From the sequence record OR999189.1: a stretch of 64,000 nucleotides of DNA, one strand, 5' to 3'. A program made the translations under genes and the position numbers. Of this stretch, positions 36,290-37,116 are shown piece by piece. A model generated the notes under the pieces. That model did not search any database and was not told where the DNA came from. It saw only the letters and a program-made list of their open reading frames with translations. Origin of the DNA: Enterobacteria phage P922. How positions within the stretch are numbered: the first letter of the stretch is position 1; the number at the start of each line of letters is the position of its first letter.

Positions 36290-36362
36290 TGGGAATTAGC
36301 CAAGTTGGTAAGGCACTGGATTTTGATTCCAGGATGCAAAGGTTCGAGTCCTTTATTCCCAG
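36290..36362 (+). tRNA. tRNA-Gln (anticodon UUG)
   Basis: Hand-folded cloverleaf: acceptor TGGGAAT/ATTCCCA, anticodon loop ttTTGat, T-loop GGTTCGAGTCC. Confidence 0.8.
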
Positions 36363-36363
36363 C

Positions 36364-36450
36364 GCGAGAATGGTCAAATTGGTAAAGGCACAGCACTTAA
36401 AATGCTGCGGAATGATTTCCTTGTGGGTTCGAGTCCCACTTCTCGCACCA
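36364..36450 (+). tRNA. tRNA-Leu (anticodon UAA)
   Basis: Acceptor GCGAGAA/TTCTCGC, anticodon loop ctTAAaa, long variable arm, encoded CCA. Confidence 0.8.
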
Positions 36451-36455
36451 AATTT

Positions 36456-36529
36456 GCGGATATCGTATAATGGTATTACCTCAGACTTCCAATCTGATGA
36501 TGTGAGTTCGATTCTCATTATCCGCTCCA
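36456..36529 (+). tRNA. tRNA-Gly (anticodon UCC)
   Basis: Acceptor GCGGATA/TATCCGC, anticodon loop ctTCCaa, T-loop TTCGATT, encoded CCA. Confidence 0.8.
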
Positions 36530-36539
36530 ATTTAATTTA

Positions 36540-36612
36540 CTCCGTGTAGCTAGTTTGGTAGAGCGCCTGATTTGGGATCAGGAGGTCCAAGGTTCAAATC
36601 CTTGTATGGAGA
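36540..36612 (+). tRNA. tRNA-Pro (anticodon UGG)
   Basis: Anticodon stem CCTGA/TCAGG with loop ttTGGga; T-arm CAAGGTTCAAATCCTTG; acceptor stem has two G-U pairs. Confidence 0.7.
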
Positions 36613-36614
36613 CT

Positions 36615-36704
36615 GGAGGCGTGGCAGAGTGGTTTAATGCACCGGTCTTGAAAACCGGCAGTCGCTCCGGCGACTCATAGGTTCAAATCCTATCGCCTCC
36701 GCCA
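36615..36704 (+). tRNA. tRNA-Ser (anticodon UGA)
   Basis: Acceptor GGAGGCG/CGCCTCC, anticodon loop ctTGAaa, long variable arm, encoded CCA. Confidence 0.8.
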
Positions 36705-36709
36705 GTTTT

Positions 36710-36785
36710 GCTGATTTAGCTCAGTAGGTAGAGCAACTCACTTGTAATGAGAAGGTCGGCGGTTCGATTCCGTTAATCAGCACCA
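36710..36785 (+). tRNA. tRNA-Thr (anticodon UGU)
   Basis: Acceptor GCTGATT/AATCAGC, D-arm GCTCAGTAGGTAGAGC, anticodon loop ctTGTaa, encoded CCA. Confidence 0.8.
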
Positions 36786-36786
36786 A

Positions 36787-36861
36787 GGCCCTGTAGCTGG
36801 AAGGTTCAAGCAAGCGACTCATAATCGCCAGATGGTGGTTCAATTCCACCCAGGGCCACCA
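36787..36861 (+). tRNA. tRNA-Ile/Met (anticodon CAU; probably the lysidine-modified Ile type)
   Basis: Acceptor GGCCCTG/CAGGGCC, anticodon loop ctCATaa, T-loop GGTTCAATTCC, encoded CCA. Confidence 0.7.
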
Positions 36862-36870
36862 AATTAATTT

Positions 36871-36957
36871 GGGGAGTTATCCCGTAGAGGTAGCGGTGTG
36901 GACTGTAAATCCATTGTCATTGCGACTCGGGTGGTTCGACTCCATCACTCCCCACCA
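36871..36957 (+). tRNA. tRNA-Tyr (anticodon GUA)
   Basis: Acceptor GGGGAGT/ACTCCCC, anticodon stem-loop GTGGA-ctGTAaa-TCCAT, long variable arm, encoded CCA; D-arm fold uncertain. Confidence 0.6.
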
Positions 36958-36961
36958 ATTT

Positions 36962-37036
36962 GGATGTGTAGCTCAATGGCAGAGCGATCGCCTGTTAAGC
37001 GATTGGTTATAGGTTCGAATCCTATCACGTCCGCCA
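36962..37036 (+). tRNA. tRNA-Asn (anticodon GUU)
   Basis: Acceptor GGATGTG/CACGTCC, D-arm GCTCAATGGCAGAGC, anticodon loop ctGTTaa, encoded CCA. Confidence 0.75.
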
Positions 37037-37040
37037 AATC

Positions 37041-37116
37041 CGAGGCATAGCTCAGAAGGAAGAGCAAGGACCTTCTAAGTCCTAGGTCGTAGGTTCGATC
37101 CCTACTGCCTCGACCA
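37041..37116 (+). tRNA. tRNA-Arg (anticodon UCU)
   Basis: Acceptor CGAGGCA/TGCCTCG, D-arm GCTCAGAAGGAAGAGC, anticodon loop ctTCTaa, T-loop GGTTCGATCC, encoded CCA. Confidence 0.75.

Follow-up and report, generated by a model that had tools for sequence, protein, structure and literature searches.

A ten-gene tRNA array of apparent T2 type, lacking segB, in Enterobacteria phage P922

The window analysed here, a 64,000-nucleotide stretch of DNA from Enterobacteria phage P922 (OR999189.1), contains ten transfer RNA (tRNA) genes in a single array. Judged by its sequence, the locus is the segB-free (T2/RB-type) form of the T-even tRNA cluster, in a Tequatrovirus close to Shigella phage Sfk20 and Escherichia phage BW-1. 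In the explanation favoured as a whole, which is held with high confidence, the cluster is of T2 type, the T4 arrangement is derived via the homing endonuclease SegB, and the tRNAs serve codon supply together with, in the case of tRNA-Tyr, an anti-defence role.

ARAGORN finds exactly ten tRNA genes in the window, all on the plus strand between 36290 and 37116, in the order Gln-UUG, Leu-UAA, Gly-UCC, Pro-UGG, Ser-UGA, Thr-UGU, a gene with anticodon CAU, Tyr-GUA, Asn-GUU and Arg-UCU. All ten also exceed the gathering threshold of the Rfam family RF00005 (29 bits), with scores of 30.2 to 74.1 bits; nine fall at 58-74 bits (E-values of 1e-10 to 1e-14), and the remaining one is Tyr. These are ten genuine tRNA genes. 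A first-pass annotation, folded by hand from the letters, had listed the same ten with coordinates, order and anticodons that the two programs reproduce in full, and ARAGORN, one of the two programs it had named as a check, calls both Tyr and Asn with the anticodons it had assigned. The spacers between successive genes measure 0, 5, 10, 1, 5, 1, 9, 4 and 4 nucleotides (nt), in agreement with the range of 0-10 nt given there. The 3' CCA is encoded in eight of the ten genes, Gln and Pro being those without it.

The array lies downstream of the ipI, trna.4, trna.3 and trna.2 open reading frames (ORFs) and upstream of rnaD, rnaC and the e.8/e.7 region. In T4 (NC_000866) the flanks are alike, with trna.2-4 and ipI upstream and rnaD and rnaC downstream, and identity to the window reaches 95-96% on both sides (35274-36798, 37483-37817, plus flanks). 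By blastn, the T4 homology ends at 36798, 12 nt into the CAU gene, and comes back at 37483, in rnaD. This break and the divergence of the Ile and Arg alleles show that the two phages carry alternative cassettes at 36799-37482: Ile2', Tyr, Asn, Arg' and orf116 in the window (the primes setting these alleles apart from those of T4), and Ile, segB and Arg in T4. The complete T4 order is Gln, Leu, Gly, Pro, Ser, Thr, Ile, segB (a GIY-YIG homing endonuclease), Arg, rnaD and rnaC, so that the first-pass annotation was right in giving T4 eight tRNAs, without Tyr and Asn. The T4 Leu, Gly and Ser genes are those of the window except for the CCA found in the window's Ser only, and Pro is identical except for a 1-nt deletion. 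T4 does not encode CCA for Ser or Ile, has no orf116 and has a different Gln anticodon arm, and its Ile and Arg alleles differ from those of the window (about 50-65% identity). The insertion of two genes into a T4-type array was considered and rejected, as the break in homology falls within the CAU gene, with no return before rnaD, and the alleles of Ile and Arg are not those of T4. The array had also been described as expanded. It does hold two genes more than that of T4, but the word expansion does not stand, since T4 is likely the reduced, segB-invaded form.

The counterpart of the window's cassette is found in T2. The T2L tRNA region, sequenced by Brok-Volchanskaya et al. 2008 (EMBL AJ880101), has the order Gln, Leu, Gly, Pro, Ser, ORF, Met(CAU), Tyr, Asn, Arg, ORF and stable RNAs, without segB (PMC2330249). 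Primers published for the T2L Tyr, Asn and Arg genes have exact or near-exact sites in the window (numbers 6 and 7 match), and primers 24 and 25, directed at the second ORF, each fit orf116 with a single mismatch (PMC2330249). Over 36787-37817 the T2 genome PV958097 and the window share 96.9% identity, and in the left half, Gln-Leu-Gly-Pro-Ser, 97.5%. Both have CAU-Tyr-Asn-Arg, the ORF of 116 amino acids (aa), rnaD, rnaC, no segB, a Ser gene ending in CCAG and the preferred SegB site in Asn. The same CCAG difference between the tRNA-Ser genes of T2L and T4 has been described (PMC2330249). Between Ser and the CAU gene, T2 has an ORF of 133 aa ('trna.1'), whereas the window has tRNA-Thr there; by keeping tRNA-Thr in place of the ORF, the window reaches ten genes against the nine of T2.

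In a megablast search of 36200-37200 against 50,697 GenBank phage records, 881 records match and 393 cover at least 80% of the query. The best matches, at 99.4%, are Sfk20 (MW341595) and BW-1 (OR125554), of the genus Tequatrovirus. Adjacent Tyr and Asn genes are present in 395 of the GenBank phage records, with an identity of at least 99% in 250, and T4 segB in 126, which makes the Tyr-Asn allele about three times commoner. Given these 395 records and the annotated relatives, the array is a common and annotated one. It is already known: annotated in hundreds of genomes, described in its T2L form in 2008 and addressed in its function through T6 in 2026.

The SegB recognition site explains how the cassettes could be related. 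The site has a GGTTCRANTCC core and a CCAR end, and the preferred form is intact in the window (Table 1). The copy in Asn differs from a second one in Ser (36680-36706) at exactly G6, A16, G18, A26 and A27, the same five positions that set the preferred site apart from the weaker SegB site in published work, in which the preferred one lies wholly inside the T2L tRNA-Asn (PMC2330249). A tblastn search with T4 SegB (E-values up to 10) does not find segB in the window. A hidden segB or another homing endonuclease within the array was also considered and rejected; tblastn returns none, and the flanking ORFs belong to PHROGs of unknown function without Pfam domains. In crosses of T4 with T2L, segB is found in 99.6% of the progeny and the T2L cassette, followed by two ORF probes, is kept in 0.4%, so that the published crosses turn the T2-type region into the T4 type (PMC2330249). 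SegB would cut preferentially inside tRNA-Asn, and repair from a segB-carrying genome would replace Asn and, with longer tracts, also Tyr, Ile2', Arg' and orf116. The replacements seen in BP32, T6 and T4 are nested and centred on the Asn SegB site (Table 1), the pattern expected if breaks in Asn are repaired with co-conversion tracts of varying length. T4 is thus likely the minority, reduced, segB-invaded and derived state, given that the crosses convert the T2 type into the T4 type and that 126 records with segB stand against 395 with Tyr and Asn.

Individual genes of the cassette have a wider history. Vequintavirus genomes, although unrelated, carry Ile2' and Tyr genes at 96-99% identity, which indicates, at the level of sequence, that individual tRNA genes are laterally exchanged between unrelated coliphage families. 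In the rV5-like Vequintavirus WalterGehring the two counterparts occupy 1506-1592 and 2077-2151, in an order different from that of the window. The variable arm and T arm of tRNA-Tyr, TTGTCATTGCGACTCGGGTGGTTCGACTCCA, are identical in T5 and one T5-like phage, the rest of the tRNA being about 79% identical. Such traffic opens the question whether homing endonucleases and recombination during co-infection mainly set the gene content, Tyr and Asn being near-neutral passengers. The mosaic alleles of T2, T4, T6, BP32, wV7 and RB3, the genes shared with Vequintavirus and the replacement of a region that is dispensable in the laboratory at the frequency of the cross above (PMC2330249) would all fit this account. 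It is nevertheless judged improbable. The Tyr-Asn allele is still the majority despite the SegB drive, which suggests selection for its retention, base pairing survives where the Tyr genes of T6 and the window differ, and T6 shows a measurable fitness effect.

The first of the proposed functions is codon supply. Codon usage was compared between 82 non-overlapping ORFs of the window (18,831 codons) and 81 MG1655 genes (27,999 codons), with readability assigned under standard E. coli wobble rules for modified U34 and G34/Q34. The 12 codons with the highest phage-to-host ratio, AGA, ATA, TCA, GGA, ACT, AAT, ACA, AGG, CCT, TCT, TTA and TAT, are all readable by the ten tRNAs. Of the 30 sense codons that end in A or T, the 11 ranked highest are covered without exception (P about 1.4e-6; Mann-Whitney p 1.7e-5). 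Tyr (1.73-fold) and Asn (1.60-fold) are the two most over-used amino acids, and by absolute excess AAT stands first (+29.7 per 1000) and TAT fourth (+20.0). Relative to the early strand, ORFs on the late strand show a use of AGA, ATA, GGA, TCA, ACA and CCA that is 1.3-1.7 times higher. The earlier idea that the anticodons match codons over-used in late genes is therefore supported, as a correlation, and includes Tyr and Asn when demand is counted by amino acid. The ten tRNAs would top up the decoding of codons far more frequent in this AT-rich phage than in E. coli, namely the A-ending ones of eight families and the whole Tyr and Asn boxes, the latter because Tyr and Asn are the most over-used amino acids.

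These figures would also be compatible with a pure supply of codons and amino acids, any anti-defence effect being incidental. Complete coverage of the 12 most enriched codons, the leading place of Tyr and Asn and the preference of late-strand genes for covered A-ending codons all speak for it. Even so, this account is somewhat unlikely to be sufficient. Lys is as over-used as Asn, yet the array is without a tRNA-Lys, and Tyr and Asn are served by abundant, multi-copy host tRNAs. The T6 experiments give a defence-specific benefit of tRNA-Tyr (PMC13096335), and the variable arm of Tyr is conserved across unrelated phage families where the remainder diverges, which points to selection on the arm.

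The favoured explanation accordingly adds to codon supply an anti-defence role of tRNA-Tyr. In E. coli, the Septu system (PtuAB) cuts the host tRNA-Tyr in the variable arm upon infection; T4, in which a gene for this tRNA is missing, suffers strong restriction, T6 stands in between and T2 resists (Chihara et al. 2026, PMC13096335). T6 escapers amplify a unit of 718 base pairs (bp) with Tyr and segB, a plasmid-borne T6 tRNA-Tyr rescues infection, deletion of the T6 tRNA region sensitises the phage, and the T6 tRNA-Tyr is seen by northern blot (PMC13096335). The gene that counters Septu in T6 is identical to that of the window at 85 of 87 positions, with an identical variable arm, and the T6/window differences keep the pairing (G30-C40 versus G.U; G50.U64 versus G-C). 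The tRNA-Tyr of T5, reported to resist retron-Eco7, has variable and T arms identical to those of the window. The rescue data for tRNA-Tyr on hosts with Septu or retron-Eco7 come from T6 and T5 only (PMC13096335, PMC11555353). By analogy with the T6 gene, the tRNA-Tyr of the window would supply extra or replacement tRNA when Septu PtuAB or retron-Eco7 cleave the host tRNA-Tyr, and tRNA-Thr and tRNA-Asn may act likewise against PARIS/AriB and P2 OLD. The first-pass annotation had proposed that the array replaces tRNAs targeted by host anticodon nucleases. For Tyr the replacement is supported by the near-identity to the T6 gene (PMC13096335), but the cut falls in the variable arm and not in the anticodon. 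For Asn, such a replacement is something that we infer.

The tRNA-Asn differs from the host gene at a nuclease target. AriB cleaves the E. coli tRNAs Lys-UUU and Thr-UGU, and less strongly Asn-GUU, at U36AAUC/N41; a change of U39 to A abolishes the cleavage in tRNA-Lys; and the T5 Lys, Thr and Asn tRNAs together neutralise PARIS, although T4 still needed the T5 tRNA-Lys (PMC12409363). In the window, Asn reads U36-A-A-G39-C40-G41, compared with U36-A-A-U39-C40-C41 in E. coli. The T5 Asn and Thr genes also have G39, which in Asn breaks the UAAU motif of AriB in both T5 and the window, and tRNA-Thr of the window has G40 where E. coli has C40. The G39 and G41 of Asn are suggestive of a predicted insensitivity to AriB. 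Without a tRNA-Lys, the array would not suffice on its own against PARIS. For P2 OLD, Thr-UGU is the preferred target, and Thr-UGU tRNAs of phages suppress it (PMC12445682). Colicin E5 has Tyr, His, Asn and Asp tRNAs as substrates, and the genes variably present in the genus, Tyr, Asn and His, are three of these four. Evasion of colicin E5 is unsupported, as the phage Tyr and Asn tRNAs keep the U33-G34-U35 target.

Together, these data raise the possibility that the array is primarily an anti-defence island, in which Tyr, Asn and Thr (and His in sister phages) are nuclease-insensitive or surplus replacements for the host tRNAs that Septu, retron-Eco7, AriB, P2 OLD or enzymes like colicin E5 destroy. 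Cleavage of tRNA-Tyr by Septu and retron-Eco7 and its counteraction by the T6 and T5 genes, the two substitutions at the AriB motif, the suppression of P2 OLD and the coincidence with three of four colicin E5 substrates can be cited for it. It is considered rather doubtful, on a par with pure codon supply, as tRNA-Lys, the main target of PARIS and PrrC, is missing, Septu cleaves the T6 tRNA-Tyr, whose variable arm is that of the window, the U33-G34-U35 loops would not escape an E5-type enzyme, and eight of the ten genes are explained by the codon-supply pattern alone. A further proposal, bolder and improbable on present grounds, is that the Tyr-Asn segment (with His in sister phages) is a module that bypasses host defences and conflicts with a selfish element. 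It would include, just as tentatively, G39 and G41 of Asn as resistance to AriB and possibly to OLD-type nucleases, in parallel to the link of the phage-type variable arm of Tyr with Septu and retron-Eco7. If true, each segB invasion destroys an anti-defence Asn and adds a nuclease able to amplify Tyr, and the segB-positive, Asn-negative and segB-negative, Asn-positive alleles are balanced by the host defences met.

Several points weigh against the favoured explanation. The T4 Ile and Arg alleles cannot derive from those of the window, and more than one donor lineage is involved. The lack of Tyr and Asn genes does not keep T4 from growing well, and in the laboratory phages can do without the tRNA region (PMC2330249). 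The T6 tRNA-Tyr is itself cut by Septu and acts in a dosage-dependent way, with only intermediate protection from a single copy, and the Septu resistance of T2 is not ascribed to its tRNA (PMC13096335); a single-copy, segB-free array may therefore protect poorly. The codon match is a correlation, drawn from heuristic ORFs in 64 kb and 81 E. coli genes. Lys is over-used 1.59-fold and AAA ranks second by absolute excess, yet the array offers no tRNA-Lys. Nor are Tyr and Asn rare among the host tRNAs: E. coli has three tRNA-Tyr genes, and four gene copies of tRNA-Asn were seen. With multi-copy host tRNAs, the supply argument is weaker for these two than for AGA and AUA.

The identity of the CAU gene required separate attention. 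ARAGORN and GenBank labels give it as elongator Met, a reading that is rejected in favour of the Ile2 type. It is identical to E. coli ileX at 58 of 75 positions, compared with 45 of 75 for metT, and its anticodon arm, GCGACUCAUAAUCGC, is identical to the whole ileX anticodon arm. On the same comparison, the label 'Ile-CAU' of the first-pass annotation is better than the default 'Met' of ARAGORN. The acceptor stem GGCCCUG/CAGGGCC gives the pairs C4-G69 and C5-G68, shared with ileX and reportedly determinants for TilS. The tRNA is presumed to be lysidine-modified and to read AUA. The gene matches a Vequintavirus tRNA-Ile at 74 of 75 positions and the T4 Ile at 47 of 72.

Two features of the tRNA-Tyr gene, the length of its variable arm and a C.C mismatch in its D stem, account for its Rfam score of only 30.2 bits. 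A marginal or false call was considered and rejected, since the low score is an effect of the model and the T6 gene, which is functional, shares 98% identity with it. Identity is 84 of 87 to the Vequintavirus gene, 69 of 87 to that of T5 and 52 of 85 to E. coli tyrU. The tRNA-Asn, which is identical to that of wV7, matches both E. coli asnT and the T5 Asn at 47 of 75 positions. The low identities to tyrU and asnT mark the two as phage-lineage tRNAs and not recent host captures. The tRNA-Arg matches BP32 at 75 of 76 positions, and the T4 and T6 Arg genes at 38 of 75.

In tRNA-Pro, a D-arm deletion at about 36552 changes GCTCAG to GCTAG, with loss of C13. The D stem is left with three pairs and an A.G mismatch, the pair 13-22 being non-canonical. 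The copies of T4, T2, BW-1, wV7 and BP32 do not have this deletion, IMG/VR holds no exact match, and among GenBank phages there is no full-length match at 100%, the best full-length one reaching 98.8%. The deletion is either a private mutation or a sequencing error. On these grounds one could suspect pseudogenes among the ten, with Tyr barely above the Rfam threshold and mismatched in its D stem, and Pro having A.G for its fourth D-stem pair. This is very unlikely. Tyr is kept at 97-98% in T6, wV7, BP32 and Vequintavirus, its T6 copy is expressed and rescues infection, and its score reflects a class II tRNA on a model dominated by class I. Pro scores 58 bits with its other arms intact, and functional tRNAs with three-pair D stems occur.

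The tRNA-Gln gene is identical to that of T4 at 65 of 73 positions, with all eight differences in the anticodon arm. Two alleles exist in the genus, distinct in this arm only, and the eight changes include compensatory stem pairs. Loop positions 32 and 38 are U/U in the window and BW-1, which shares the window's allele, and C/C in T4, T6 and wV7. The loop of the window, UUUUGAU, is the same as in E. coli glnU. The split could reflect selection by an enzyme that targets the anticodon loop or by a modification enzyme.

The ten tRNA genes, the small ORF, rnaD and rnaC probably form one transcription unit. A single processed transcript, as first proposed from the spacing, is plausible, because the genes lie on one strand with spacers of 0-10 nt and no internal sites, a MotA motif lies upstream and a terminator-like hairpin follows rnaC. 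The MotA-box pattern occurs 11 times in the window against 2.3 expected in the pattern search. The late-promoter consensus TATAAATA is present at 35944-35951, about 340 nt upstream and in the preceding ORF; this motif is weakly enriched (18 in the window, 10.3 expected). A scan for sigma-70 promoters stays at the level of shuffled sequence (11 sites, 11.6 expected), and pattern scans of the array find no promoter- or terminator-like site within it. The hairpin beyond rnaC is the probable end of the tRNA and stable-RNA unit. In the T4 model, one long precursor is cut by host RNase P and other enzymes, and host enzymes would cut the precursor here into mature tRNAs in the same manner.

Between tRNA-Arg and rnaD, orf116 belongs to phrog_3355 (unknown function; E-value 1e-54) and has no Pfam match. 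It is absent from T4 and RB3 and goes along with the T2-type cassette. The rnaD alignment opens at 37483, which corresponds to position 4 of the T4 rnaD, and its ends are conserved and its centre divergent. A weak match to Rfam tRNA-like or transfer-messenger RNA families falls in rnaC (37648-37742); rnaC and rnaD have no Rfam family of their own. Downstream of the array, 37817-38496 and 39024-39588 have no T4 homology by blastn and contain one ORF each, of 187 aa (phrog_2280) and 176 aa (phrog_6869), both of unknown function, the latter in place of T4 e.7. These segments look like typical mosaicism of the T-even hyperplastic region.

Table 1 Coordinates of the tRNA genes, the SegB site, replacement breakpoints and neighbouring features in the window.
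Feature	Position	Strand	Remarks
Preferred SegB 27-bp recognition site GGTTCGAATCCTATCACGTCCGCCAAA	37012..37038		In tRNA-Asn, intact; starts at T-arm GGTTC
BP32 breakpoints	36961 / 37041		Asn gene and spacer only (36962-37040) replaced by segB; Arg' and orf116 kept
T6 breakpoints	36961 / 37483		Asn through orf116 replaced; Tyr kept, then segB and T4-type Arg
T4 breakpoints	36798 / 37483		Whole cassette replaced
tRNA-Gln (UUG)	36290..36363	+	ARAGORN, Rfam; no encoded CCA; abuts tRNA-Leu, 0-nt spacer
tRNA-Leu (UAA), class II	36364..36450	+	ARAGORN, Rfam; CCA encoded; 87/87 vs T4
tRNA-Gly (UCC)	36456..36529	+	ARAGORN, Rfam; CCA encoded; 74/74 vs T4
tRNA-Pro (UGG)	36540..36613	+	ARAGORN, Rfam; no encoded CCA; private 1-nt D-arm deletion (or sequencing error)
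tRNA-Ser (UGA), class II	36615..36704	+	ARAGORN, Rfam; CCA encoded (CCAG); T4 without
tRNA-Thr (UGU)	36710..36785	+	ARAGORN, Rfam; CCA encoded; 72/76 vs T4; ORF here in T2
tRNA-Ile2 type (CAU)	36787..36861	+	ARAGORN, Rfam; first gene of T2-type cassette; allele unlike that of T4
tRNA-Tyr (GUA), class II, phage-type variable arm	36871..36957	+	ARAGORN; Rfam 30.2 bits
tRNA-Asn (GUU)	36962..37036	+	ARAGORN; Rfam 74.1 bits, highest of ten
tRNA-Arg (UCU)	37041..37116	+	ARAGORN, Rfam; allele unlike T4/T6 Arg
T4-type middle-promoter-like motif (MotA box TGCTTTA, 12-nt spacer, TATTAT)	36196..36220	+	70 nt upstream of tRNA-Gln
orf116 ('trna.2' ORF of T2L)	37133..37483	+	116 aa, between tRNA-Arg and rnaD; GAGG ribosome-binding site 6 nt upstream of ATG
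rnaD homologue (T4 stable RNA species 2)	37480..37594	+	92/118 aligned columns identical to T4; start extrapolated
rnaC homologue (T4 stable RNA species 1)	37601..37739	+	137/139 vs T4; tRNA-like 3' T-arm and acceptor
Intrinsic-terminator-like hairpin (10 bp, 7 GC) and T run	37790..37813	+	Sequence pattern

The significance of the locus lies first in a correction of framing. T4, the textbook reference, is likely an atypical allele invaded by a homing endonuclease, the array of ten or eleven genes being the norm of the genus, and the window is a clean example of the 'recipient' allele, its SegB target being intact. A single new lead comes out, a T-even tRNA-Asn substituted at positions that block AriB cleavage in other tRNAs, from which the proposed conflict between SegB and anti-defence follows.

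Compared with the known systems, the window occupies a definite place. T6 is without Pro, Ser and Asn, has segB directly after Tyr and carries T4-type Ile and Arg genes (Chihara et al. 2026, PMC13096335); the window, being without segB, is without the SegB-driven amplification route of T6. In T5, the tRNA genes number about 24, Lys included, and are dispersed, each with its own strong promoter, unlike the array of the window. RB3-type phages have the four cassette tRNAs, with orf116 absent. The eleven-tRNA variants (wV7, slur04/08, U115 and others) have all ten genes of the window in the same order, followed by orf116, and an extra 194 bp between Asn and Arg, composed of a 114-nt spacer, a tRNA-His (GUG) and a 4-nt spacer, that the window does not have. 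In all, 321 phage records contain this tRNA-His module (wV7 1142-1335), many of them from phages of Klebsiella and Enterobacter, and the module circulates more widely than the Tequatrovirus array. Sfk20 and BW-1 come closest. The window alone has the tRNA-Pro D-arm deletion, and both relatives share its Gln anticodon-arm allele and the same ten genes in the same order, with the tRNAs already annotated (the BW-1 record shows the same ten).

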